A stretch of DNA of 64,000 nt. Origin: a virus. Taxonomy: Duplodnaviria; Heunggongvirae; Uroviricota; Caudoviricetes. Where the stretch lies: IMG/VR virus record IMGVR_UViG_3300037455_000372, positions 11,710-75,709 of that record. One strand, given 5' to 3'. Below the pieces are notes generated by a model. It saw only the letters and a program-made list of their open reading frames with translations, was not told where the DNA came from and made no database searches. Positions 6,350 to 56,358 of this stretch are shown here, piece by piece; within the stretch, counting starts at the first letter, position 1; each line of letters opens with the position of its first letter. The position numbers and the translations under genes are program-made.

Positions 6350-7030
6350 TTATTTATAGTTTTGTATTTCATATATTCCTTCAAGTTCGTCCGCGACTTC
6401 GCGCATCGAGTGTTCCGCCATCCAAGTCTTGTTGTTGTCGATATAGAAGTGTACCGACTTGGACTGTTCGTAGGTCTTCCTAGAAAAATTCAAGTAACCG
6501 TCGGCACACTTGATATACAGATGTTCCGGATTTACGACCACATCTGAGTAGTACGATACTATCTGAGCCATCTGCGCCTCGAACGTCTGCTTGATGAACT
6601 GACGGACTTCGTCTCCGCCCATACCGCGAATGAGACCCTTCTCGATCAGCGAATCGACTTCGCCGCACCATAATGACACGGTTTCGGTATTATGCTCTTC
6701 GTGGACTATGCAGTTAATGTTCGGCTTGGACGTGTCGAACCCTGTAAAGACGCAGAACACGCATCCGCCAATCTTCAAGTTGCTTGTATCGTCGTGCTCG
6801 ACGCTCTTGAGACAGTTGCAGTTGATGATGTATTCGCGCTTCTCGACTTGGCACGACGGGTTGATATAGATGAACGGGTACCTCCGAGCCAGATCCAAGA
6901 GCTTTTCGTACGCTTCACGCTTGGTTTCCTCAAGCTGGAGGTTCTTGCTAACCGAAGCCAAGCTGGATTCGAGTTCTGTCTGGTGCTGCGACAGTGCAGC
7001 GATTCTTGTCATATCGTAACCATTTGCCAT
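6350..7030 (-). CDS. hypothetical protein (226 aa)
   Basis: minus ORF; stop abuts tnpB stop. Confidence 0.5.
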   Translation of the reverse strand: MANGYDMTRIAALSQHQTELESSLASVSKNLQLEETKREAYEKLLDLARRYPFIYINPSCQVEKREYIINCNCLKSVEHDDTSNLKIGGCVFCVFTGFDTSKPNINCIVHEEHNTETVSLWCGEVDSLIEKGLIRGMGGDEVRQFIKQTFEAQMAQIVSYYSDVVVNPEHLYIKCADGYLNFSRKTYEQSKSVHFYIDNNKTWMAEHSMREVADELEGIYEIQNYK

Positions 7031-7317
7031 CAGCGACGTTCCTTCAAATATTTAGTGTTGACCTTGCGCTCTTCCGCTGTCTTCAGCGGACAACGTACCG
7101 GACGCTCGAATTCGGTAAAATCCGGATGCATATATTGCTGTTCGTACACGAGCTTGTTGTGAGATGTCTTCCTAGGCGCGTAGCAAGCTGTATCGAGGTT
7201 GAAGTTGCCTAACGCGCAGTAACGGCGGTATGGATGCTTGCCACCCTTCTTTTCATCCAGCTTCACTTCCTTGAAATGCTCACAGCCGTCACATCCCGGC
7301 ATACCAATCATAGCCAT
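7030..7317 (-). CDS. hypothetical Cys-rich protein (95 aa)
   Basis: minus ORF, overlapping start/stop with neighbour. Confidence 0.5.
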   Translation of the reverse strand: MAMIGMPGCDGCEHFKEVKLDEKKGGKHPYRRYCALGNFNLDTACYAPRKTSHNKLVYEQQYMHPDFTEFERPVRCPLKTAEERKVNTKYLKERR

Positions 7318-7319
7318 AG

Positions 7320-7574
7320 TTACCTCTGGATTTCGCTACAGCGAGCCGGTTCACCCTTGCTGTTGTAGTACACCGTAATGCCATTCTTGGATTCGGACTG
7401 CCAGTAGCGCAGATATGCGATATTGGTCGACTTGTCGCAGAAGATGGAGAAGTCGCCACGAGCATCGATATCCACCATCTTGTAGATGCGACCGTTGTCG
7501 TGCAAGTTCTGTGCGTGGTCTTCGCATCCGGCAATAGCCAGCGCGGCCAACATAATCAACAAGTATTTCATCAT
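7320..7574 (-). CDS. putative lipoprotein (MMKYLLIMLAALAIAGC lipobox)
   Basis: ORF 7320..7691 trimmed to ATG 7574 after GAGGGGAAA; signal peptide plus LAIAGC lipobox. Confidence 0.55.
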   Translation of the reverse strand: MMKYLLIMLAALAIAGCEDHAQNLHDNGRIYKMVDIDARGDFSIFCDKSTNIAYLRYWQSESKNGITVYYNSKGEPARCSEIQR

Positions 7575-7792
7575 TTTCCCCTCGCATTTTTTGGTCTGTC
7601 GTCCAAAGGTTTCTTGCGTACCGGCTTCTCGCGCATCGCCCAATGGGTGAACGCCTCGGAACAGTCGTCCTTCATTTTGTGTTTTTCGCAATAGCTACGA
7701 GCCGGACACTCGTTACAATCGTCGTTGCTCATCACCCGGATAAGCTGCCGGATATGTTTTTCGTCTTTTGCAAATGCTTGTAGGTAATTCAT
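7571..7792 (-). CDS. small Cys-rich hypothetical protein (73 aa)
   Basis: promoter motif at 7798-7808 directly upstream; ATGA overlap with downstream gene. Confidence 0.5.
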   Translation of the reverse strand: MNYLQAFAKDEKHIRQLIRVMSNDDCNECPARSYCEKHKMKDDCSEAFTHWAMREKPVRKKPLDDRPKNARGK

Positions 7793-7867
7793 ACTCGAAA
7801 TATAGCAACTTTAGTCCAATATTGCTATAAAGAGTGGAAGTCTGCCCAAAAGAAAAAGATTAAATAG

Positions 7868-8809
7868 CTACTTCCACTGCTTGTTGACGGCTACCGAACG
7901 CTTCGGGTCGACATTCTTGCCCCACGAGCGCATCTGCCCACGGTAGTCGTTACCGTTCTTCTGGATCCACTTGAGGCAATCCTCGTAATCGCCGTGGTAA
8001 AGCGGCCTATACTCGTTCTCGCCGTACACGTTGTATTCAGACGACTCGCTCTCTTGGTCAACGATGAAGCAGCTCTTCGGCTGTCTGCGGTCAAATATAA
8101 CCTGATTCTCCTCGTCGCCGTAATGGTAGAACTCGTTTCCGGTGCCTATGAACACGATGCTGCCCGAACCGTACTTCAGGCGGCCAAAATGCGGCCTAGG
8201 AGCCTCGTCTATGGGGAACGCGAACAGATAGTCGCCATATTCCTTTCCGGCGGTAGAACCGGCGTTAGAATAGGCAAGGCTGCCGATCTCGTCGCCGTAC
8301 TGGAACCCTTCCCTCCAGATGTCCCAAGCATAGTTGGAATTGTGGACAAGCCAGCCGTTCACGACGGTGTGGTTGAAGTCCAGAGTGGTCCTGTCTTGGT
8401 TGGTATACTCGTCCGAACTGTAGATGACCTTGCAAGCGGTCTGCGGATATGAATTGACAATCGTGTAGATGTCCTCGGCGACGAAGTCGTACGCGTCGTA
8501 ATCCTTATACGTGCTGGCGATTCCGTCCGGGTCGAACGCCGCGATGTCGGTGACAATCTCGACGACCAAGCTCGGATTCTCGAAGAGCGTGTCAAGCGCG
8601 TCCAGTGCGCTCTCGTAGGGGTGCTTCTCGTGCCAGACAGCGTTGAACTTATCAGTATAGGGGGATCCGTCCTTCTCGATCGACTTCGGCTTCCTGTACG
8701 CCTTGCGGAGATACATCGTAGGCTCGCTCAGCGACTCGTAGGCGGCTGAGGCGGCTTCCACCAGCGGAGACTTCGGCAAGTTGGACAGATACTCTTTGAA
8801 CTGGTTCAT
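7868..8809 (-). CDS. hypothetical protein (313 aa)
   Basis: long minus ORF; divergent from + operon with motif-rich spacer 8810-8883. Confidence 0.55.
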   Translation of the reverse strand: MNQFKEYLSNLPKSPLVEAASAAYESLSEPTMYLRKAYRKPKSIEKDGSPYTDKFNAVWHEKHPYESALDALDTLFENPSLVVEIVTDIAAFDPDGIASTYKDYDAYDFVAEDIYTIVNSYPQTACKVIYSSDEYTNQDRTTLDFNHTVVNGWLVHNSNYAWDIWREGFQYGDEIGSLAYSNAGSTAGKEYGDYLFAFPIDEAPRPHFGRLKYGSGSIVFIGTGNEFYHYGDEENQVIFDRRQPKSCFIVDQESESSEYNVYGENEYRPLYHGDYEDCLKWIQKNGNDYRGQMRSWGKNVDPKRSVAVNKQWK

Positions 8810-8853
8810 AGGTCGAAAATATCGATTGCTCTAATGGCAGTTTATCAGTTATA

Positions 8854-8864
8854 TTGCTATATTT
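8854..8864 (+). promoter_or_regulatory. TTGCTATATTT promoter-like motif upstream of CDS 8884
   Basis: motif copy; reverse-complement copy at 8826-8834 faces the divergent gene. Confidence 0.5.
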
Positions 8865-8883
8865 CAGCAAAAAGGAACACTTT

Positions 8884-9669
8884 ATGGTAGAAACACAAGA
8901 TTTCGACAAGTACGCGGATATGACCCGCGAAATGATGAAGAATGACAGCTGGCTCGGCTACGATCTCGGCTGCATCGATTCGGCAAGGAAGGCGTTCGTC
9001 AAGGCCAAGGCATCTATGGATGCTGACAACCACTCAGGAGCGTCGTGGAGTGTCACCGCAAACTTCCTCGCCAAGGCCATCTACAACGACCGTCTCGTGC
9101 CAATTACCAAGAAGGAGCTGGACAGTATCGACAAGGAATACGAACCGAGCGAGGTCCACCCACTGCCGAGGTTCAGCTGCTACTACGGTCTGAAGTGCTT
9201 CTACTATATGGGCATCCGCGATTTTTACAAGCTCGTGAACCAGAAAGGCGAAATCGCCTACACCGACTTCAACCGAGTAGAAGCCCACTTGGTCAAGGAC
9301 GACGGCAAATCCGTCGACATCCTCAAAAAGAACCGCGACCACAAGTATATGCTCAATCCACTCGCGTGCAGTATCGTGGACGAGCTGTTCCCCATCAAGT
9401 TTCCGCACTTCCGCGACAACATATTCCGCTACCACGTCACGTTCGTCGTCAAGGACCACGGCACTCTGAGCAGCGACAACTGCTTCGTCAAGGTCGTAGG
9501 ACTCGTGACGCCAGACGGCGTATCGGTTAAGTGCAACCGTTTCTACCATTACTACACCTACAACACGCCGGAGTACGACCACGTACTCCAAGAGATTACC
9601 GAGGACGAGTTCAACGCCGACAATCCGAAGATCGACGTTAAGAAGCTTCCCGTTCTCGACAAGGAGTAA
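8884..9669 (+). CDS. hypothetical protein (261 aa; start MVETQDF)
   Basis: ATG after motif and AAAAGGAA RBS; listed longer ORF starts inside the promoter. Confidence 0.55.
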   Translation: MVETQDFDKYADMTREMMKNDSWLGYDLGCIDSARKAFVKAKASMDADNHSGASWSVTANFLAKAIYNDRLVPITKKELDSIDKEYEPSEVHPLPRFSCYYGLKCFYYMGIRDFYKLVNQKGEIAYTDFNRVEAHLVKDDGKSVDILKKNRDHKYMLNPLACSIVDELFPIKFPHFRDNIFRYHVTFVVKDHGTLSSDNCFVKVVGLVTPDGVSVKCNRFYHYYTYNTPEYDHVLQEITEDEFNADNPKIDVKKLPVLDKE

Positions 9670-10777: not shown

Positions 10778-12202
10778 ATGAAGACATATTCTGGAAACGA
10801 ACTTATAAAGGTGGCGAAGTATCGCCAGTCGGCGCAGGAATTCCTCGGCCAGCTCGAAGCAAAGGGGTTCGCCGTCGAAACAGTGACCGTCGAAGACAGC
10901 ACGGCTACTTTCCACTACAAGGCCGAACAAGACGGCCAGACCGTCTATGCTGACATCCTTGTCAAGAGCAGCAAGGGTGAAATCGGTGCCAAGGCAAAAT
11001 GCGGGTCCCGTTCCCATAAATACGAGTTCGAAAGGACGTACTATTCCAGCGAACGGTCAGATTTTTTCAAATGGATCGACTGCGTAACTAAGCTCAATAC
11101 CACGGAAGCCTTGGACGGCTCTATGTCGTTGCCTCACGACCTTTGGTATTCCATACCCAAGAACAAGGCGTTCTGTGAACGAGTGCGCAATGATTTGCTG
11201 CCGCTCACCAAATGCGACTATCAACTGAATAACTTGGCAAACCTAGTACATATGCCGGACGACCAATATAACTTTGGTATATCGATCGGGGCTTTTCCGC
11301 AACTTGTCTACAGCGCACAAATCAACGACTTTGTCCGAGACCCGCAACATCCGGAACTTTTTATTGATATCGGCATCACTAGCAGACAGTCAGGCTTCAT
11401 AACAATTAAGTGCTACGATTTCGACCCTCGTGGAAACGATTTGAAGCGCAAGATGTACCCTGAGACCAAGCTGGTTGCGGTGAAGAACCATACGCCAGAT
11501 AACGGCGAGTATATCTACCATACGGACTACGAAACCGCGCTGAAACTCGTCAAGGAGGCCAAAGACCGTCTCTGGGCTATTTACGACGAAGAAGCCAAGC
11601 GTCACGGAATTCCAGAAACTTGGAAGGAGGCTACCGGGTGGACTACTGACGGCCCGGTATATCCGGAAGGTTCCTCCGCTGGCGAAAGTATTACCAAGAA
11701 GCGCGATGACGCTCGCGCAAAGCTTATCGAGCAGAACTTGCGCGTCATCAAGGCTCAAGTCAGCCGTCGCTGCGACGCATCACTGGAAGATACCTTTCCG
11801 GGCGCACAGTATCTCGACAAGGTACCCAAATGGAGAGAGGAGAGCATCCTCCACGGAAACCAGTATTACTACGAGGCTTACGCCACTATTCCGTACAAGT
11901 TCCCAAACATCAAGGGTTCCAAAATCGCTTGGCAAGACAAGGTCATAGAGATTACCATCACCTATGACAAGTCATTCGACCGTTTCACCATTTCGTACAG
12001 AATCCCGTTCAAGTTCGCTTGTATGTGCGGCGTTTACGACTGGTTCTACGAAGCCAAGAAGCACGATACTGAAAAGATGATGATTATCAAGAACTCCGGC
12101 AGAGCCACCCACACGGATATTGGCTCCTCCGGCTTCAGGTACATCAAGCAACACCTCGACGAATTGAAGCAGTTCGCCGAGTACAAGGGATTCAAGGAGT
12201 GA
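10778..12202 (+). CDS. hypothetical protein (474 aa)
   Basis: long + ORF, tightly packed operon. Confidence 0.55.
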   Translation: MKTYSGNELIKVAKYRQSAQEFLGQLEAKGFAVETVTVEDSTATFHYKAEQDGQTVYADILVKSSKGEIGAKAKCGSRSHKYEFERTYYSSERSDFFKWIDCVTKLNTTEALDGSMSLPHDLWYSIPKNKAFCERVRNDLLPLTKCDYQLNNLANLVHMPDDQYNFGISIGAFPQLVYSAQINDFVRDPQHPELFIDIGITSRQSGFITIKCYDFDPRGNDLKRKMYPETKLVAVKNHTPDNGEYIYHTDYETALKLVKEAKDRLWAIYDEEAKRHGIPETWKEATGWTTDGPVYPEGSSAGESITKKRDDARAKLIEQNLRVIKAQVSRRCDASLEDTFPGAQYLDKVPKWREESILHGNQYYYEAYATIPYKFPNIKGSKIAWQDKVIEITITYDKSFDRFTISYRIPFKFACMCGVYDWFYEAKKHDTEKMMIIKNSGRATHTDIGSSGFRYIKQHLDELKQFAEYKGFKE

Positions 12203-38306: not shown

Positions 38307-38984
38307 TTAACCCATATCGGCACCCTTATAAGACGGTATCACATAACCGTCGTTAGGATTGACAAAAAGCTTCTTTTCCCCATTAAGCGTCTTCTTCACA
38401 AGGTCAACCGCATCGGCCTTATTGATCACGCAAGGATTCTTCTTGTGAGTAGCCCAAGAATAGCAACGGTCACGCGTCTGGTCATCGTTAATGAACACAT
38501 AGCGATGGCCGAAATCGTCTACGTGTACCGTCGACTTGAATGACTGCACCCATTCACGGTTGTGTTCAACCGTAAACGGATTGTCACACAATACGTAGAC
38601 GTTCCACAAGATGTCACCTTCATTCATCTGGTTCTCGTCCAGTCGGTTCAAGTCAGTCTGGAAGATGATTTTCCCAGCCGGAGGAGTAGATGCGGACTTG
38701 GCACGGCCTTTCTTCACGTCGAAATCCGCAGGGACGATGTCCAAGAAGATGTTCAAGTTCACGCAGCCATATCGTGCGATAAGCGTAGATTGGTTCTGGT
38801 TAACCTTGTCAGCTTGCAAAAGCATCTGTCGTAAGTCTTCGGCGGAGTATTCCTTGCCGCCGACGGAAACCTTTGAACCGAAGTCCAACGTGGCCACATA
38901 GGCTACGTAACGATTATACTCGTGGTCGGCCACGATAGTATAAGTACGGTTAGGAACTGGATAAGAAGTGTTAATCGCGTACAT
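38307..38984 (-). CDS. hypothetical protein (225 aa)
   Basis: minus ORF. Confidence 0.5.
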   Translation of the reverse strand: MYAINTSYPVPNRTYTIVADHEYNRYVAYVATLDFGSKVSVGGKEYSAEDLRQMLLQADKVNQNQSTLIARYGCVNLNIFLDIVPADFDVKKGRAKSASTPPAGKIIFQTDLNRLDENQMNEGDILWNVYVLCDNPFTVEHNREWVQSFKSTVHVDDFGHRYVFINDDQTRDRCYSWATHKKNPCVINKADAVDLVKKTLNGEKKLFVNPNDGYVIPSYKGADMG

Positions 38985-40204
38985 TATTTCCCCTTGGCTT
39001 TCTCTTCGGAAGCCTTGAAATTGTAAATCGGCTTGATGGTCGTTATGATATCAGCCGTCTCTTGGATGTTACGGACGATCTCGCCCATCGGCTTGTAGGC
39101 CATCGGCGACTCGTCGATAGTGCCAGAACCAACACATGTCGTGTAGATACCTTCCATCGAAGACTTGAACGCCTCCATCGTCAAGGTCTCCTTCGCCTTG
39201 GAACGAGACATCAAACGTCCGGCACCGTGCGGTCCGGAGAAGTTCCACTCTTCGTTGCCCTTACCGCGAACCAAGAGCGAGCCGTCCCTCATATTCATCG
39301 GAATCAAGGCGACCTCGTCCTTCTGCAAGGAAATGGATCCCTTGCGCAGAATCATATTGTCCAAGTCGATGTAGTTATGCACGGTACAGAACTTGTCCAA
39401 GATGTGATGCTTCTTGATGCCCATACAGTCGATGATGACATCCATCATCGCCTCACGGTTCCACCAAGCGAAATCCTGAGCAATCTTCATATCGTGCAAG
39501 TAGTTCTGCAGCAATTCGCCTTCCAAGTAGGCCAGCTCGTCCGGAATCGGACACTTTGCCGCTTGGTTCGCCTTCAAGACCGTCTCAATCTCGGACTGGC
39601 GGCCCTGAGCCTTCAACCGCTCGATAACCTCTTGCTTCGTCTGACGCTGGTTCTTGTGGTACTTGATTGCTTCCTTCTGGTAGAAATTACACACCTCAAT
39701 ACCCAAGTGGCGCGAGCCGGAATGAATTACGATGTATTTATTACCATCGGAATCCACATCAATTTCGCCGAAATGATTTCCCGAACCAAGAGTCCCAATC
39801 GATAACATCAGTTTTTCGGCATTGACTGGAGCAATCAATTCGTCCAAAGCAACACGTTCAGTAAAGCGGTGCTTCTTCGTACGGTGGTTCATCCCAGACG
39901 GAATTTCGTTATGCCACACCTTGTCGAACTTCGGCAAGTCGAGGATGCAGTCCTTCGAGACCTTCATCACGAGCATACCACACCCGATGTCGACGCCGAC
40001 CAAGTTCGGCACGACACGGTCGACAATCTTCATCGTCAACCCAATAACACAGCCAGTACCGGCGTGGCAGTCCGGCATAATGGCGAAATGAGAACCTTCA
40101 GCAAACTTCTGGTTCATCAAGTTCAAAATCTGCTTGTAGGCGGCATCTTCCAAGATGTCAGTATACACCTTCGCCGTGTTAAACTTTCCTACGATTTCAA
40201 TCAT
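38984..40204 (-). CDS. rtcB: RtcB-family RNA ligase (3'-phosphate/5'-OH)
   Basis: MPDCHAGTGCVIG, GSGNHF, NFSGPHGAGR motifs in RtcB order; start set to MIEIVGKF (AGAGG RBS) because promoter motif 40229-40239 lies inside the longer ORF. Confidence 0.8.
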   Translation of the reverse strand: MIEIVGKFNTAKVYTDILEDAAYKQILNLMNQKFAEGSHFAIMPDCHAGTGCVIGLTMKIVDRVVPNLVGVDIGCGMLVMKVSKDCILDLPKFDKVWHNEIPSGMNHRTKKHRFTERVALDELIAPVNAEKLMLSIGTLGSGNHFGEIDVDSDGNKYIVIHSGSRHLGIEVCNFYQKEAIKYHKNQRQTKQEVIERLKAQGRQSEIETVLKANQAAKCPIPDELAYLEGELLQNYLHDMKIAQDFAWWNREAMMDVIIDCMGIKKHHILDKFCTVHNYIDLDNMILRKGSISLQKDEVALIPMNMRDGSLLVRGKGNEEWNFSGPHGAGRLMSRSKAKETLTMEAFKSSMEGIYTTCVGSGTIDESPMAYKPMGEIVRNIQETADIITTIKPIYNFKASEEKAKGK

Positions 40205-40208
40205 AATT

Positions 40209-40478
40209 CTAACCTCTGTAATTGGGGTAAATATAGCAACACGGAGGATAAATGTCAATACGCCAATCGCCTAATTGGTATGGCAAGTCCTTGGTCATTC
40301 GCATATACTCTTTCATCGGGTCTACCGGGTCAGTAAACATATTCTTGTCCATCGCCGGGACTGCTATCAAGACCAGAAGCATCGAAGTCCACAACGCTGT
40401 GCGCCTAATAGTACACTTCAACGCAACCAGAAAGGTTACCGTAAACCAAATAAGTGCCAATACCGCTTGATCTAGCAT
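40209..40478 (-). CDS. small membrane protein (89 aa, two TM segments)
   Basis: hydrophobic helices; minus ORF between operon members. Confidence 0.4.
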   Translation of the reverse strand: MLDQAVLALIWFTVTFLVALKCTIRRTALWTSMLLVLIAVPAMDKNMFTDPVDPMKEYMRMTKDLPYQLGDWRIDIYPPCCYIYPNYRG

Positions 40479-43071: not shown

Positions 43072-43163
43072 TGGACCGACTCAGACTCGAACTGAGAAGT
43101 ACATTTTACTGTACGTGTGCCGGGTTATGAGTCCGGTGCCTTAACCAATTTGGCGATCGGTCC
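43072..43163 (-). tRNA. type-II-like tRNA (long variable stem-loop GTACA-GTAAAA-TGTAC) with anticodon CAT
   Basis: acceptor GGACCGA/TCGGTCC perfect, T-arm CTCAG-TTCGAGT-CTGAG, anticodon hairpin CCGG(A)-CTCATAA-(C)CCGG; about 92 nt. Confidence 0.5.
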
Positions 43164-45655: not shown

Positions 45656-47689
45656 CTATTCCAGAGAAGCTACCCAGTCGTTGTAGCTCGCGTCACTGGG
45701 CATACGCCAGTCGGCACGAGGAGACAGCGACAACGTACCGACCTTCGGTCCGTCAGGGATGCAACTGCGCTTGAACTGCTGGGTGAAGAAACGGCGCAAG
45801 AAGAGTTCAAGAGCCTTCTTCAGCTCGTCGTGCTTGTCCCTGCCGAACGCATATTCGGCCAGATACAGCATCTTCGACGGCGTGGCACCGTACTTCACGA
45901 AGTGGTACAAGTAGAAGTCGTGAATATCGTAGGATCCGAGGATGCTCTCCGTCTTCTGCGCAATATTGCCGTTTGCGTCAGCCGGAAGCAGCTCAGGAGA
46001 TACCGGCGTGTCCAAGATGTCTCTGAGAACATCGGCCAGATTCTTCTTGCTGTCATCGCCTTCGCCAATCATACGGTCGACAATGCTGTACTTGTATTCG
46101 TTGTCGGCCTTGTCGGCATACCAGTTCACGATATAACGAACAAGCGTCTTCGGAATGTCGCAGTTCACCGAGTACATCGACATATGGTCGGCGTTATAGG
46201 TACACCAGCCAAGAGCGATTTCGGACAAGTCTCCGGTTCCGATAACCATACCTTGTTCCTTGTTGGCCAAGTCCATAAGAATCTGGGTACGTTCACGAGC
46301 TTGCGTATTCTCGTATGTCACGTCGGTAACCTTCGGATCGTGTCCGATATCGTCGAAGTGCTGCATACAAGCCTTGGAAATGTTAATCGTACGGAGTTCC
46401 ACACCAAGAGCCTCAGCCATTTCTACGGCATTATTCTTGGTACGCTTGGTTGTACCAAACCCAGGCATTGTCACCGCAAGGATGTCGGAAACCGGTCTGC
46501 CCAAGAGCTTGTACGTCTCGTATACGACCAGCAAGGCCAACGTAGAGTCAAGACCGCCAGACAACCCGATTACGGAACGCTTCACTCCGGTTTCAAGACG
46601 CTTGGCAAGGCCAGCACACTGGATATTGAAGATTTCACGGCAACAGTCATTGCGAACATTGGCAGCACTCGGCACAAACGGAGTCGAAGAAACATAGCGG
46701 TATTTCAGCTCCTTATTTGTCGGAACTGGGTCAATATCGCGGAATTTAATGGGGTGATAAACACGAAAACGGTTAACAACATCGCTATGTCCGAAATCTT
46801 GGAACGAACCTTCGCTGATACGCTGCATATTCAAGCGAGCCGCGTCAATATCTGCATAGATAATCTCGGTATCGCGAGAGAACTTATTGCACTCGGCCAT
46901 AAGGCTGCCGTTCTCGGCAATCATCAGGTGGCCGCTGCAAACCATATCAGTTGTCGATTCGTGAACACCAGCGGAGGCGTACACGTAACCAGCCATACAA
47001 CGGGCGGACTGATTCGTCACAAGGTCGCGACGATAGTTGGCCTTGCCTACCAATGCGTCACTGGCAGACAAGTTCAGAATCACGTTCGCACCGGCAAGAG
47101 CAAGTTCACCACTCGGCGGAGCCGGAGTCCACAAGTCTTCACACAATTCTACGCCGAGGCGTAATTCTGTATTGTTGGCAAACCCAAGCAAGTTGGTAAT
47201 TACCGGTTCATAGGCACCGACCCGGCACGTAAGAGCGTGACCGAACTCGTCACCCTTGAGCAATTCATAGCCGCTAGAAAAATGACGTTTTTCGTAAAAT
47301 TCGCGCTGGTTAGGCAAGTGAATCTTAGGCGTTACCGCGACAACCGATCCATTTTGGATAAGCACGGCGCAGTTGTACAAACGACCGAAAATCCGAAGCG
47401 GCGCACCCACAGCAATGATGACGTTTTTAAACGTATCACTGTTCATTTGGGTCATCCGGCAAATGTCAGTAATACCGTCGATTGTCTTCTGAAGAAGCGT
47501 CTCTTGATGGAAGAGGTCGTTACAAGTATAACCGGTGATACTCAGTTCCGGGAATACGACAACCGTTGCGCCGTTCTTTACGGCTTCCTTGGTCGCTTTC
47601 TTGATTTCAGCCACGTTGTATTCAGTATCTGCCACCTTGAGCTTGGGGCATACTGCAGCAAATCTGTAAAATCCGAATCCGTTATTCAT
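45656..47689 (-). CDS. nadE: glutamine-dependent NAD+ synthetase (CN-hydrolase + NadE domains)
   Basis: N-domain nitrilase-type FPELSITGY / K / LCEDLW triad; C-domain PP-loop GLSGGLDSTL; 677 aa typical for the two-domain enzyme. Confidence 0.8.
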   Translation of the reverse strand: MNNGFGFYRFAAVCPKLKVADTEYNVAEIKKATKEAVKNGATVVVFPELSITGYTCNDLFHQETLLQKTIDGITDICRMTQMNSDTFKNVIIAVGAPLRIFGRLYNCAVLIQNGSVVAVTPKIHLPNQREFYEKRHFSSGYELLKGDEFGHALTCRVGAYEPVITNLLGFANNTELRLGVELCEDLWTPAPPSGELALAGANVILNLSASDALVGKANYRRDLVTNQSARCMAGYVYASAGVHESTTDMVCSGHLMIAENGSLMAECNKFSRDTEIIYADIDAARLNMQRISEGSFQDFGHSDVVNRFRVYHPIKFRDIDPVPTNKELKYRYVSSTPFVPSAANVRNDCCREIFNIQCAGLAKRLETGVKRSVIGLSGGLDSTLALLVVYETYKLLGRPVSDILAVTMPGFGTTKRTKNNAVEMAEALGVELRTINISKACMQHFDDIGHDPKVTDVTYENTQARERTQILMDLANKEQGMVIGTGDLSEIALGWCTYNADHMSMYSVNCDIPKTLVRYIVNWYADKADNEYKYSIVDRMIGEGDDSKKNLADVLRDILDTPVSPELLPADANGNIAQKTESILGSYDIHDFYLYHFVKYGATPSKMLYLAEYAFGRDKHDELKKALELFLRRFFTQQFKRSCIPDGPKVGTLSLSPRADWRMPSDASYNDWVASLE

Positions 47690-51138: not shown

Positions 51139-51576
51139 TTACCCCTTATAGAGCTGATACTTTTTGCTCAAAGTACGACTAGTCTCGTCGGGCAACGGCT
51201 TGAACCAGATTCCGACGCGGCAATACTTGTTGCCTTTCTCGTCTACGGCCTCCGGAGTCAGCTCCGTCAAGCAAGCGTCGTCGATAAAGTCATAGTCGGT
51301 TCCCTTGACCAGACCCATTTCCTTGGCGACATCCTCCACCTTCATCAAGTGGTTAAGATTCTTCGCCTCGCAGATGGTCTTGACGAACAGACCTTGGATA
51401 TACTCTTCCATCGTCTTTGTATCGAGTTCGAACGTCACTTGGTATACACCGTCGTCCTCCATCGAATTCGTGGAAATAAGGCGGGTCCAGTAACCCTCGG
51501 CACAGTGAGCCACCATCGCGGCAAGCTTACCGGCAGACAAATTCAAGTCCTTTCGGATGATAAATAAACGGCGCAT
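51139..51576 (-). CDS. PTH2-family peptidyl-tRNA hydrolase-like protein
   Basis: FIIRKDLNLSAGKLAAMVAHCAEG matches the PTH2 v.R.DL.m..GKiaAQ..HA opening block. Confidence 0.55.
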   Translation of the reverse strand: MRRLFIIRKDLNLSAGKLAAMVAHCAEGYWTRLISTNSMEDDGVYQVTFELDTKTMEEYIQGLFVKTICEAKNLNHLMKVEDVAKEMGLVKGTDYDFIDDACLTELTPEAVDEKGNKYCRVGIWFKPLPDETSRTLSKKYQLYKG

Positions 51577-52971: not shown

Positions 52972-53009
52972 ATAGCCAAGTTAGCTATTTGATATTTGAA
53001 ATTCAATTA

Positions 53010-53086
53010 GAGCACTCGGACAGGCTCGAACTGTCGATCATGCGGTTGCGGCGCATTGCCTTTAAAAACCAACTTGGCTACGAGTG
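53010..53086 (-). tRNA. tRNA-Cys (anticodon GCA), extended D-loop
   Basis: acceptor GCACTCG/CGAGTGC, anticodon arm ATGCG-CCGCAAC-CGCAT, T-arm GACAG-TTCGAGC-CTGTC. Confidence 0.55.
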
Positions 53087-53091
53087 CTTAA

Positions 53092-53168: not shown

Positions 53169-53255
53169 ATACCGACGCCCAGACTCGAACTGGGATGGGA
53201 CTTGATGTCCCGGACGATTAGAAGTCGTCTGCACTATCCAATTATGCGACGCCGG
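53169..53255 (-). tRNA. type-II-like tRNA (18-nt variable stem-loop GGGAC-ATCAA-GTCCC) with anticodon TCT
   Basis: acceptor GCCGGCG/CGTCGGT, D-arm GCAT-AATTGGATA-GTGC, anticodon arm GACGA-CTTCTAA-TCGTC perfect, T-arm CCCAG-TTCGAGT-CTGGG. Confidence 0.5.
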
Positions 53256-53262
53256 CAAAAGA

Positions 53263-53872: not shown

Positions 53873-54098
53873 AGTCTTCTTCCTTCGGCGGTTCCATCGT
53901 TGCCACCAGCTTTATACCAACCAGTTTAGGCTGTGGCGGCAGATTCTTCGGCGTCAAATCGAGTGCTAGATAACAGGGTTCTGTAAAAGTGAACTTATAC
54001 TCGAACTTTTCCGGAGGATATCTCCTCTGGACTTCCGCTATTTGTGCTTTCGCTCGTGGTGACAAGCGATTCTCGATTTGTTTATCCATATCCGTCAC
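53865..54098 (-). CDS. hypothetical protein (77 aa)
   Basis: minus ORF. Confidence 0.4.
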   Translation of the reverse strand: MTDMDKQIENRLSPRAKAQIAEVQRRYPPEKFEYKFTFTEPCYLALDLTPKNLPPQPKLVGIKLVATMEPPKEEDYG

Positions 54099-54172
54099 GA
54101 AAGACTTGAACTTTCACGCCTCGCGGCACCAGATCCTAAATCTGGCGGGTCTACCTGTTCCCCCAGTAACGG
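54091..54172 (-). tRNA. tRNA-Leu (anticodon TAG), type II
   Basis: acceptor CCGTTAC/GTGACGG, anticodon arm CCAGA-TTTAGGA-TCTGG, long variable arm, T-arm GAAAG-TTCAAGT-CTTTC. Confidence 0.6.
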
Positions 54173-54260: not shown

Positions 54261-55505
54261 CTATTCAGGTTTAATGTCAAACTGGTTCAATTTACGTCGG
54301 AAATACTTCCCTTTAAATTCATCTGGAAACCGGTTTAAAGTCGCTTCAATAACTCTTTTGGTCAAATGAGTTACTTGTTCGACTTTTCCTACCCAACCAA
54401 ATTTCATTAAATCGACACCGCTATTCAGTATTAACTCTTTTCGGTGATTCCATTCTAAGTTAGGCACCCCCTTTCCATCGATATGCCCATCTACACGTAT
54501 TAAACCATTTTGTTCAGAAAGTTTCCGCTTACTCGCATATTCTTCGATTTCAACCTTACGCTTTTCTGAATTTCTAGGTGTAGTTTTATGTTTTTTAAGT
54601 ATAGCACCTTGATTAACTGGAACATAAATCTGAGGCAGAGTATTCGTAGTATTCGAAATAAATGCCTTAATGTAGGATGCAACGATTTGTTTACGATCAT
54701 CATCCGACAGTTTCTTATACAATTTCCAACGAATTCGTCCGATTAGAAACCACCCATTCTTAGCTAATTCGGCAGTCCGGTTTGCGTCATACTCCAACCC
54801 ATCTGGTGTGTAATGAGATTCGCCATCAACTTCAAAGTATACTTTATTTGTTAAATTAGCAAAATCCAATAAATATCCACACGCACGATAGTTATTCCGC
54901 CACACAACGGTAGAATTCAATTCCTTTACTAATATATCATAAAAATACTGTTCAGCATAACTACGATGAATATGCGGATTAACCCACGTAGAACTACCAC
55001 GACCGTCTGCAATTTGTTTCTTCCGAGATTCGCTCAATTTATGACGCGTTTCTTCTGAACAAGGTTTCCTTTTCAATGTTCCATCAAGAATCCGTTGTCT
55101 AACATTCAACAAAGTTTTACGATGAATATCTGGGTCATACGTTCTACCCAAAGAATCAACCGGTAACTGACGTTTCGCATCACATTCCAAATAATGTTTA
55201 GCTAACTTACGCTTGCTTTCACAAACACCCAAACAATATTTACAGACCCAACCCCGGCTAGATTCAGTAGACCCTTTATGTCTATACTTATCCGAACAAT
55301 ATTTACCGTGTTCATCTATCCTGTGCCTATCACGATCTCGGCTCGTTTTAAAAAAGTTATGGCATATCGGGCATTCCCACGAATATGGTTTAGGTCTATT
55401 TTTGATAATATCCGCGTGCTCAATATGATGATGTTTACGCAATTCGTCTCGTGTACGGCAAGGAAACCCACATTTCGGACATATCCATTTCTTTTGTAAC
55501 TGCAT
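54261..55505 (-). CDS. homing-endonuclease-like protein: N-terminal C2H2 zinc fingers + C-terminal Vsr/DUF559-like PD-(D/E)xK nuclease fold
   Basis: CPKCGF..H..HH and CPICHNFF..H..H fingers; YFEVDGESHYTPDGLEYDANRTAELAKNGWFLIGRIRW resembles Vsr-like endonuclease core; strongly AT-rich versus flanks; variant promoter GTATAGCAAT 55531-55540. Confidence 0.5.
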   Translation of the reverse strand: MQLQKKWICPKCGFPCRTRDELRKHHHIEHADIIKNRPKPYSWECPICHNFFKTSRDRDRHRIDEHGKYCSDKYRHKGSTESSRGWVCKYCLGVCESKRKLAKHYLECDAKRQLPVDSLGRTYDPDIHRKTLLNVRQRILDGTLKRKPCSEETRHKLSESRKKQIADGRGSSTWVNPHIHRSYAEQYFYDILVKELNSTVVWRNNYRACGYLLDFANLTNKVYFEVDGESHYTPDGLEYDANRTAELAKNGWFLIGRIRWKLYKKLSDDDRKQIVASYIKAFISNTTNTLPQIYVPVNQGAILKKHKTTPRNSEKRKVEIEEYASKRKLSEQNGLIRVDGHIDGKGVPNLEWNHRKELILNSGVDLMKFGWVGKVEQVTHLTKRVIEATLNRFPDEFKGKYFRRKLNQFDIKPE

Positions 55506-55674
55506 AAAACCTCAATAAAGAATGTCCTCGGTATAGCAATATTGTGGCACTCTGCATATACCGAGGACATCGAAAACTTTATTGGTTTCTACAAGACCGT
55601 GAGTGCCACCTAACGCTCTTATATACCAGTTTATATGTCCTAAATTAGTTCAATTTAATTTTAATTTCAATTAG

Positions 55675-55748
55675 TCCCCGGAGAAGGAGTCGAACCTTCA
55701 AATTAGTGGTTTTGAATCACTCGCCTATGCCAATTCGGCTATCTGGGG
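55675..55748 (-). tRNA. 74-nt class-I-shaped tRNA with anticodon CAA (Leu codon UUG) but no long variable arm
   Basis: acceptor CCCCAGA/TCCGGGG, anticodon hairpin AGTG(A)-TTCAAAA-(C)CACT, T-arm GAAGG-TTCGACT-CCTTC. Confidence 0.45.
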
Positions 55749-55754
55749 TTATAG

Positions 55755-55828
55755 TCCACCGAGAAGGAATCGAACCTTCAAAACCACGACTCTGAATCGT
55801 GTACCTATGCCAGTTCGGTTATCGGCGG
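55755..55828 (-). tRNA. 74-nt class-I-shaped tRNA with anticodon CAG (Leu codon CUG) but no long variable arm
   Basis: acceptor CCGCCGA/TCGGTGG, anticodon arm CACGA-TTCAGAG-TCGTG perfect, T-arm GAAGG-TTCGATT-CCTTC; paralog of previous gene. Confidence 0.5.
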
Positions 55829-55912: not shown

Positions 55913-56006
55913 TGCGGGTAGGGGGATTCGAACCCAAATTCCGACTCCGCGATTAAAAGTCGCGTACTCTTGGCGTAGAACGCACTACCAGCTGAGTTAT
56001 ACCCGC
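55913..56006 (-). pseudogene. 94-nt tRNA-like element: perfect acceptor GCGGGTA/TACCCGC and Lys-type anticodon arm CGCGA-CTTTTAA-TCGCG, but a 17-nt insertion after the D-arm and a weak T-stem
   Basis: hand fold; cannot be made canonical. Confidence 0.35.
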
Positions 56007-56085
56007 ATAATTCGCAGCTGATAGGCAGCTGTCACCTTTATAATCGTTTCAATTTAAGTTTCTTCATTGTCGATTTCTCCTATAG

Positions 56086-56169
56086 TCTCCCAAGTCGGAC
56101 TTGAACCGGCACGCTATTACTAGCAAGGGATTTTAAGTCCCCAGTGTCTACCTATTCCACCACTGGGAG
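56086..56169 (-). tRNA. tRNA-Leu (anticodon TAA), type II
   Basis: acceptor CTCCCAG/TTGGGAG, anticodon arm GGGGA-CTTAAAA-TCCCT, long variable arm. Confidence 0.6.
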
Positions 56170-56181
56170 CAAGTTGTTTAG

Positions 56182-56264
56182 TCTCGATGGCTGGACTTGA
56201 ACCAAGCACTCTGTTACGAACCAGCCCCTCAAGCTGGCGGGTCTACCAATTCCCCCACATCGAG
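56182..56264 (-). tRNA. tRNA-Leu (anticodon GAG), type II
   Basis: acceptor CTCGATG/CATCGAG, anticodon arm CCAGC-TTGAGGG-GCTGG, long variable arm. Confidence 0.6.
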
Positions 56265-56275
56265 ATAAAAGTTAG

Positions 56276-56346
56276 AGCACCTATCCGGATTCGAACCGGA
56301 GCTTTCTCACAGGCAATGAGAAGTGCTACCACTACATCATAGGTGC
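56276..56346 (-). tRNA. tRNA-Gly (anticodon GCC)
   Basis: acceptor GCACCTA/TAGGTGC, anticodon arm TCTCA-TTGCCTG-TGAGA, T-arm CTCCGG-TTCGAAT-CCGGAT. Confidence 0.6.
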
Positions 56347-56358
56347 ATAAAATGTTAG

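Follow-up and report, generated by a model that had tools for sequence, protein, structure and literature searches.

Bacterial tRNA-Leu is normally of type II, whose variable arm is long, and a pair of phage tRNA genes that combine leucine anticodons with the short class I shape raises the question of which amino acid they carry and what they are for. The pair lies at positions 55675-55828 of a 64,000-nucleotide stretch of viral DNA (Caudoviricetes; positions 11,710 to 75,709 of IMG/VR virus record IMGVR_UViG_3300037455_000372), called the window below. The window looks like a phage genome, has a G+C content of about 50% and carries about 40 tRNA genes, which all lie on the minus strand, between 36.6 and 60 kb. 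A first-pass annotation had correctly set the pair against the type II norm, and had suggested that the two genes may be recoding or decoy tRNAs. Our analysis makes it probable that both function as leucine isoacceptors, of a type I shape that arose from class II tRNA-Leu by loss of the long arm.

Structure of the two tRNA genes

The genes were identified by ARAGORN, Rfam, a structural parse, leucine-profile scoring and the presence of orthologs in two further lineages (L142 and L148, see below):

55755..55828, minus strand: short-arm tRNA-Leu(CAG), 74 nt
55675..55748, minus strand: short-arm tRNA-Leu(CAA), 74 nt

ARAGORN reported tRNA-Leu(cag) at 55754-55828 and tRNA-Leu(caa) at 55674-55748, both on the minus strand, and Rfam family RF00005 matched both over their full length, with 49.4 bits for the CAG gene and 51.7 bits for the CAA gene (gathering score 29). 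In RNA sense the CAG gene (55828-55755) precedes the CAA gene (55748-55675). Their sequences, 5' to 3' on the minus strand, are divided by structural element as follows:

CAG gene, 5' half: CCGCCGA UA ACC-GAACUGGCAUA-GGU A CACGA UUCAGAG UCGUG
CAG gene, 3' half: GUUUU GAAGG UUCGAUU CCUUC UCGGUGG A
CAA gene, 5' half: CCCCAGA UA GCC-GAAUUGGCAUA-GGC G AGUGA UUCAAAA CCACU
CAA gene, 3' half: AAUUU GAAGG UUCGACU CCUUC UCCGGGG A

Both have a 7-bp acceptor stem with C1-G72 and A73, a D arm of a 3-bp stem and an 11-nt loop (GAACUGGCAUA in the CAG gene; GAAUUGGCAUA in the CAA gene), a 5-bp anticodon stem with a 7-nt loop, and a T arm of canonical form. In each, the variable loop measures 5 nt (GUUUU in the CAG gene, AAUUU in the CAA gene), the long class II variable arm typical of tRNA-Leu is absent from both, and neither gene encodes CCA. 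The structural parse thus agrees with the first-pass description of two 74-nt genes of class I shape with a 5-nt variable loop. The anticodon loops that it had read (TTCAGAG and TTCAAAA, with the leucine anticodons CAG and CAA) were recovered exactly by ARAGORN and by the structural parse, with the anticodons at plus-strand positions 55792-55794 (CAG gene) and 55712-55714 (CAA gene). Since the genes share 73% identity, identical T stems and near-identical D arms, they are paralogs, as had been proposed.

Some irregularities are found in the stems. The A-C mismatch at the end of the anticodon stem, already noticed in the first pass, is A31xC39 of the CAA gene (the first of the two in plus-strand coordinates), a gene with an A36-A37-A38 context beside its anticodon. 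The structural parse added two that had escaped notice, namely an A5xC68 mismatch in the acceptor stem of the CAA gene and a G3:U70 wobble in that of the CAG gene.

Leucine identity of the tRNA bodies

The published determinants for bacterial leucyl-tRNA synthetase (LeuRS) are A73, A14, A15-U48 and the contacts G18/G19-U55/C56 (PMC2377443, PMC6614811), and deletion of the long arm of tRNA-Leu has a cost mainly in affinity, the arm reportedly being no identity element for the bacterial enzyme (PMC2377443). Judged from their sequences, the bodies of the window pair carry these determinants. Both genes have U8, A14, A15, G18, G19, U48, T loops UUCGAUU and UUCGACU, and U54-A58, which are the sequence prerequisites of the tertiary core only. 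Both also have a leucine-type D arm, defined as a 3-bp stem with an 11-nt loop of the form G-A-A-Y-N-G-G-Y-A-D-A.

The link between this D arm and leucine was examined by two scans that were blind to the anticodon. The first, with the D-arm motif alone (CCGAANTGGCATAGG) against IMG/VR, gave 120 loci, comprising 64 chance matches in coding DNA and 56 with the motif inside a tRNA. These represented 55 distinct tRNAs, every one with a leucine anticodon, six kinds belonging to two codon boxes (tag 25, caa 12, aag 7, taa 6, gag 3, cag 2), mostly of 74-78 nt (short form) and in a few cases of 84-87 nt (long form). The second scan used a pattern with class I spacing enforced against 185,579 genome assemblies and gave 36 loci, 33 of them with tRNAs; the motif-bearing tRNAs were leucine tRNAs in 35 of 35 cases, and nearly all of them lay in dense tRNA arrays.

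A structural parse of every tRNA in the fetched contigs yielded 79 distinct short Leu tRNAs, 42 long Leu tRNAs and 335 other class I tRNAs. A73, present in both window genes, is found in all 79 short and all 42 long Leu tRNAs, and in 196 of the 335 others. Among the short forms, U48 never varies, the variable loop always has 5 nt and the T loop is always canonical (79/79 each), and the combination of A15 and U48 is present in 77 of 79 short Leu tRNAs versus 107 of 335 other class I tRNAs. The leucine-type D-loop motif itself occurs in 69 of 79 short and 33 of 42 long Leu tRNAs, and in a single one of the 335. To guard against circularity, the 18 short Leu tRNAs without the search motif were considered separately; A73 and U48 are present in all 18, and A15 in 17. 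The window pair agrees with this family in its U8-A9, D arm (NCCGAAYUGGCAUAGGN), variable loop ending in U48, A73, leucine anticodon and location in a dense tRNA array, and by these features it can be placed in a large short-arm tRNA-Leu lineage of phages and mobile tRNA arrays. The first base pair of the acceptor stem varies in the family: G1:U72 was observed in 32 of 79 short Leu, 9 of 42 long Leu and 39 of 335 other class I tRNAs, and the subset that includes all leucine tRNAs of the window has C1-G72.

Independent of the anticodon, the pair was also scored with one hidden Markov model (HMM) per isotype. These models were trained on unrelated viral contigs that did not include the window lineage, on sequences in which the anticodon had been masked and the variable region cut out. 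The scores were:

CAA gene: short-Leu 45.1; long-Leu 33.0 (independent set); best non-Leu 28.7 (Asn)
CAG gene: short-Leu 38.8; long-Leu 30.2 and 24.6; best non-Leu 17.6 (Gln)

With the best profiles being those of leucine even when the anticodon is masked, the possibility raised in the first pass that these are Gln or Met variants misread by hand finds no support. We also reject an origin from Gln, Met or Trp tRNAs through a mutated anticodon, on the strength of the profile scores and the D-arm architecture.

Relatives of the pair and conservation of its fold

Identical copies of both short-arm genes were found in five other metagenome contigs, from different samples. The contigs that were reached through flanking proteins carry 100% identical copies of the pair, and hence give no covariation information. 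A strict 50-nt pattern had no match in IMG/VR, and no close relative of the window was found among annotated phages; a BLAST search with the region returned one unrelated long-arm Leu match, and nothing in distant mode. Pattern scans of viral and metagenome collections identified two diverged lineages with the same tandem of a CAG gene followed by a CAA gene, of which L148 is the closest sister of the window pair. The base pairs of interest in the three lineages are:

Window lineage: CAG gene 2:71 C-G, 3:70 G:U; CAA gene 5:68 AxC, 31:39 AxC
L148 (46.9-kb contig): CAG gene 2:71 C-G, 3:70 G-C; CAA gene 5:68 A-U, 31:39 AxC
L142 and copies: CAG gene 2:71 U-A, 3:70 U-A; CAA gene 5:68 A-U, 31:39 AxC

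Elsewhere in the stems the three lineages differ by compensatory substitutions. The five contigs with identical copies and the two diverged lineages with compensatory stem changes show that the gene pair is not a product of chance. Because the sister lineages have normal pairs at both positions (G-C or U-A at 3:70, A-U at 5:68), G3:U70 and A5xC68 are private to the window lineage; they are recent single transitions on the 3' strand, with no conserved role.

The A31xC39 mismatch beside the loop UUCAAAA is kept in all three lineages, and recurs in short-arm tRNA-Leu(CAA) genes of unrelated viral contigs. The stems concerned are GCAGA/CCUGC and AGUGA/CCACU, and the loci are L051 (position 5218), L140 (2288), L142 (863) and the window (55675-55748). 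In total the mismatch was seen in 4 of the 79 short-arm family members, compared with 3 of the 335 other class I tRNAs. It may be an A+:C wobble that is tolerated, or else serve a function in the Leu(CAA) isoacceptor.

The fold is strongly conserved in the family as a whole. In a covariation alignment of 75 short-arm family members, 98.5% of the stem cells form standard pairs and all 20 stem pairs have changes on both sides. The covariation score was 0.959, whereas column shuffles gave 0.216 and register-shifted (slid) stems no more than 0.163. Minimum-free-energy folding of the single sequences gave a non-cloverleaf structure for the CAG gene and a z-score of -0.6 for the CAA gene, a method that we judged uninformative for tRNAs. 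It offered no alternative fold with a different anticodon, an outcome that the first pass had named as speaking against its reading, and the family covariation backs the cloverleaf.

Further observations were made on the relatives. One contig, L006 (ERZ27257203 k141_1083863, 52.7 kb), is identical to the window in the aligned sequence over both short-arm Leu genes, and from tRNA-Gly(GCC) to the homing-endonuclease-like open reading frame (ORF) its genes follow one another in the same order and at the same spacing. Upstream (L006 locus 6362-9160 was compared with window 56346-60042) it has a different tRNA composition (e.g. Ser-GGA) and other gene lengths, without an internal endonuclease ORF. 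Identity at the Leu pair and difference upstream indicate mosaic exchange within the arrays. A long-arm tRNA-Leu(CAA) in contig L126 has the acceptor stem CCCCAGA/UCUGGGG, the same as that of the short CAA gene of L148. Finally, a 75-nt short-arm tRNA-Leu(UAA) was found in Pseudobacteroides cellulosolvens ATCC 35603 (NZ_LGTC01000001.1, locus about 1126-1174), next to tRNA-Ala(UGC) and tRNA-Ile(GAU) and not in a large array, with near-identical genes in two metagenome-assembled genomes (L168 and L182); this may represent a chromosomal, non-phage use of type I tRNA-Leu.

Isoacceptor sets and codon meaning

The window encodes three further leucine tRNAs, all with a long arm:

56181..56264, minus strand: long-arm tRNA-Leu(GAG), C1-G72, A73, D loop GAAUUGGUAGA
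56085..56169, minus strand: long-arm tRNA-Leu(UAA), C1-G72, A73, D loop GAAUAGGUAGA
54091..54172, minus strand: long-arm tRNA-Leu(UAG), C1-G72, A73, D loop GAACAGGUAGA

All five leucine tRNAs thus share C1-G72, A73 and a D arm of a 3-bp stem and an 11-nt loop, the D loop being GAAYNGGUAGA in the long-arm three versus GAAYUGGCAUA in the short pair. Their anticodons are non-redundant, with UAA, UAG and GAG on long-arm tRNAs and CAA and CAG on short-arm ones, and the short-arm pair therefore fills the isoacceptor slots left empty by the long-arm leucine tRNAs of the array. The same complementarity is seen elsewhere: among the 22 contigs that hold both forms, none has a short and a long Leu tRNA with the same anticodon, versus 7.0 expected by shuffling (P about 5e-5).

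The codons UUG and CUG that the pair would read make up 24.2% and 22.1% of the leucine codons in 66 ORFs of the window, together 46%. Their meaning was assessed by a Codetta-style comparison of the NAD(+) synthetase NadE of the window (45656-47689, minus strand) with 110 homologs of 69-73% identity, using alignment columns that were at least 80% conserved:

CUG: 10 conserved columns, of which Leu 9, Val 1
UUG: 18 conserved columns, of which Leu 15, Ile 2, Phe 1
CUU: 18 conserved columns, of which Leu 15, Phe 2, Met 1
CUC: 8 conserved columns, of which Leu 7, Val 1

Alanine was found at none of the CUG or UUG sites in the conserved columns of these homologs. CUG and UUG predominantly mean leucine in this phage, and recoding as their main meaning is ruled out.

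The nadE gene itself is an auxiliary metabolic gene. Its product is a full-length, glutamine-dependent NAD(+) synthetase with about 69% identity to Fibrobacter enzymes, of which 44% could be aligned with Mycobacterium tuberculosis NadE. From the resemblance of this one auxiliary gene, the host of the phage is probably Fibrobacter. Judged by their accessions, the samples seem to belong to a rumen or gut series.

Functional interpretation

In the scheme that we favour, the two tRNAs would be cut out of a minus-strand transcript of the array by RNase P and 3' nucleases of the host, and would receive their CCA from the host CCA-adding enzyme. Charging with leucine would be performed by the host LeuRS (probably that of Fibrobacter), after which the tRNAs would decode UUG and CUG during infection and either supplement or replace the tRNA-Leu of the host. 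On the simplest view, bacterial-type LeuRS has no need of the arm, and its loss would be tolerated in the fast-evolving arrays of phages.

Several points weigh against this interpretation. No aminoacylation or expression data were found for any phage member of the short-arm family. The E. coli LeuRS failed to charge a type I tRNA-Leu(CAA) from Streptomyces (PMC6614811), and acceptance of such tRNAs consequently depends on the enzyme; the host, for its part, is assigned from the single auxiliary gene nadE. The A5xC68 and A31xC39 mismatches may weaken the CAA gene. With regard to the methods, the family sample was collected largely through the D-arm motif, which makes the D-arm statistics partly circular, albeit not those on anticodon, A73 and U48. 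The isotype classifier is home-made from small sets of training sequences and assigns several other tRNAs wrongly, and we use it as supporting evidence only. The NadE comparison shows the predominant meaning of a codon, low-level mischarging being below its reach.

A different explanation, which we regard as unlikely, also has the pair carrying leucine, but takes the loss of the arm to be adaptive, in that it allows escape from effectors or toxins that recognise class II tRNAs by their long arm. In its broad form, to which we would give the same low credence, phages and mobile arrays would repeatedly have fixed type I Leu tRNAs (six anticodons) that are invisible to AbiEii/MenT-type nucleotidyltransferases, Schlafen-like or other tRNases. 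According to a preprint, class II tRNAs appear to be the preferred targets of the abortive-infection toxin AbiEii, and eukaryotic Schlafens cleave type II tRNAs; the single bacterial Schlafen studied, however, acts on class I tRNAs, which it cuts in the anticodon arm, and the paper on it mentions neither type II specificity nor short-arm Leu tRNAs. Short forms are found mainly in phage and mobile arrays, while cellular tRNA-Leu is almost always type II (PMC6614811), and leucine is the only one of the three bacterial class II isotypes for which the arm can be lost without loss of identity. The RtcB RNA ligase and PTH2 hydrolase encoded among the tRNA genes of the window (see below) are in line with such a role, albeit circumstantially. 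On the other hand, no experiment ties a defence system to short-arm Leu tRNAs, the window phage retains three long-arm Leu tRNAs as well as long-arm Ser and Tyr tRNAs, many contigs mix short and long Leu forms, and neutral loss of a dispensable arm fits the same data. If the explanation were true, leucine decoding would persist with the host tRNA-Leu disabled, and the CAA/CAG pair would be hardened replacements for the most-used G-ending leucine codons.

It is very improbable that the pair inserts another amino acid at UUG or CUG, either in general or with the CAG tRNA serving as a substrate of alanyl-tRNA synthetase (AlaRS), so that CUG would partly be read as Ala, as in Pachysolen. This idea draws on the G3:U70 wobble, present in the CAG gene of the window and in its identical copies from five contigs, which in combination with A73 is the classical AlaRS determinant (summarised in PMC7609411). 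The wobble occurs in only one of the 79 family members, however, and the CAG gene has C-G at both 1:72 and 2:71, versus G1-C72 and G2-C71 in tRNA-Ala. Moreover, the Ala profile was not among the top isotype scores, CUG stands at a conserved Leu in nine of ten NadE columns and never at an Ala, and a reassignment would be proteome-wide because CUG and UUG make up nearly half of all leucine codons. We reject alanine identity via G3:U70 on account of the G-C and U-A pairs at 3:70 in the sister lineages (L148 and L142) and of leucine in the CUG columns; at most a low level of mischarging in this one lineage is conceivable.

Equally implausible in our view is a non-translational role, with the RNAs soaking up a host nuclease or toxin, serving as processing punctuation or being decaying pseudogenes: the unusual shape, the two mismatches in the CAA gene and the lack of clean cloverleaves in energy-based folding may hint at it, but such RNAs would have no need to keep A73, A15-U48, a 5-nt loop with U48 as its last nucleotide and a canonical T loop across relatives, nor compensatory change in all 20 stem pairs, nor anticodon sets that complement the long-arm genes exactly, and the CAA gene keeps its A36-A37-A38 context and has an acceptor mismatch that is absent from the sister lineages.

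The initial suggestion of recoding or decoy tRNAs thus finds no support, given the leucine identity set, the leucine profiles obtained with masked anticodons, the otherwise empty isoacceptor slots and the position of CUG and UUG at conserved leucines. What characterises a recoding or suppressor tRNA was not observed, the pair having sense anticodons, leucine-type bodies and target codons that align with leucine. Under the reading of the pair as functional leucine isoacceptors, the genes should be annotated as tRNA-Leu(CAG) and tRNA-Leu(CAA), and not be taken as a sign of an altered genetic code.

Other features of the tRNA array

Two homing-endonuclease-like ORFs are located within the array, at 54261-55505 (minus strand), immediately downstream of the CAA gene, and at 57412-58329 (minus strand). 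Their matches were listed jointly: one of the two matches phrog_655, and the other has a DUF559 domain and a weak, sub-threshold match to a C2H2 zinc finger. The minus strand also encodes an RtcB-family RNA ligase (38984-40258; 202 bits in Pfam) and, at 51139-51576, a PTH2 peptidyl-tRNA hydrolase. The presence of both among the tRNA genes suggests that the phage repairs or maintains tRNAs during infection.

Two tRNA-like genes were detected by Rfam only. The one at 55913-56006 (minus strand; 44.7 bits), missed by ARAGORN even with intron search, has the anticodon loop CUUUUAA of Lys(UUU). Its D loop carries an insertion of 18 nt and its variable region is enlarged, and it is the immediate upstream neighbour, in RNA sense, of tRNA-Gly(UCC) and the two short-arm Leu genes. 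The other, at 53011-53087 (minus strand), was found in a 25-kb Rfam scan (48.3 bits) and not by ARAGORN, and a rescan of 53005-53091 came back empty.

The opposite anomaly, a class II shape with an anticodon that normally goes with class I, is seen in three tRNAs of the window, which are the long-arm oddities of the first-pass annotation:

43072-43163, minus strand: Met-CAU anticodon, 92 nt
53169-53257, minus strand: Arg-UCU anticodon, 89 nt, with a 5-bp extra arm
58445-58534, minus strand: Asn-GUU anticodon, 90 nt (an Asn-GUU tRNA of normal length lies at 57338-57411)

A few long-arm Thr, Lys, Met, Trp and Gly tRNAs were also found in unrelated viral contigs.

Comparison with known short-arm leucine tRNAs

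In the literature searched, type I tRNA-Leu in bacteria is treated as a Streptomyces rarity. Fan et al. (NAR 2019) described a natural type I tRNA-Leu(CAA) that is leucylated by the LeuRS of S. coelicolor, with a minimum variable loop of 5 nt including position 48; they state that almost all bacterial tRNA-Leu is type II, and do not mention phages (PMC6614811). This tRNA resembles the window pair in its 5-nt variable loop, its CAA anticodon and its coexistence with type II Leu isoacceptors served by a single LeuRS. It differs in being a chromosomal actinomycete gene, in its variable loop ACAGC (with C48 instead of U48) and in having a LeuRS that ignores A73. Because of the C48 and of a LeuRS that does not use A73, it is probably a lineage independent of the phage family.

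Animal mitochondrial tRNA-Leu is likewise type I, lacks the long arm and is charged by a bacterial-type LeuRS, but has a degenerate D/T elbow, other identity rules and no evolutionary link to the phage family; it is not charged by S. coelicolor LeuRS (PMC6614811). The CUG-reassigning tRNAs of yeasts (Pachysolen tRNA-Ala(CAG) and Candida tRNA-Ser(CAG)) share with the window pair a CAG anticodon on a shape that does not look like that of leucine, the Pachysolen tRNA being class I with G3:U70. They have Ala or Ser body identity, however, and their CUG codons do not align with leucine, whereas in the window the body is of leucine type, G3:U70 is not conserved and CUG means leucine.

A closer parallel in setting is the short-variable-loop tRNA-Leu(TAG) mentioned in passing by Behra et al. 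(2019) in a horizontally acquired tRNA cluster of Mycobacterium mucogenicum/phocaicum (PMC6582537). It is again an arm-less Leu tRNA in a dense mobile array, with an HNH endonuclease gene that may be compared with the homing-endonuclease-like ORFs of the window, but it resides on a bacterial chromosome and was given no functional or family analysis.

The search for homologous tRNAs in phages that had been recommended at the outset showed short-arm tRNA-Leu to be widespread. T5-like phages (Demerecviridae) have a 77-nt short-arm tRNA-Leu(UAA) in about 370 records, mostly annotated as tRNA-Leu; examples are AKFV33 (NC_017969, 35426-35502, annotated via tRNAscan-SE) and 'tRNAL2' of Salmonella phage 5. 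Homologs have also been deposited as tRNA-Leu in Gordonia, Acinetobacter, Streptomyces, Myxococcus and Vibrio phages. We found no paper on the missing arm of the T5-like tRNA-Leu(UAA), nor one that describes the phage short-arm family as such (a review of non-canonical tRNAs included), in a search that had most subscription journals outside its reach. The short-arm tRNA-Leu of phages is a known though under-described kind, to which the window pair adds new members. The T5-like tRNA resembles the pair in its near-identical D arm (UA AUCGAAUUGGCAUAGGU), GUUUU variable loop, A73 and location among phage tRNA genes, and differs in its UAA anticodon, G1:U72 instead of C1-G72, encoded CCA, and in phage family and host.

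In phages, the T5 group among them, and in mobile tRNA arrays, the textbook rule that non-mitochondrial tRNA-Leu is always class II breaks down systematically. The family shows which parts of tRNA-Leu are indispensable, namely A73, A15-U48, the geometry of the D loop and a variable loop with a length of exactly 5 nt, and T5 in E. coli offers a convenient system for addressing both the charging of arm-less leucine tRNAs and their possible escape from defence.

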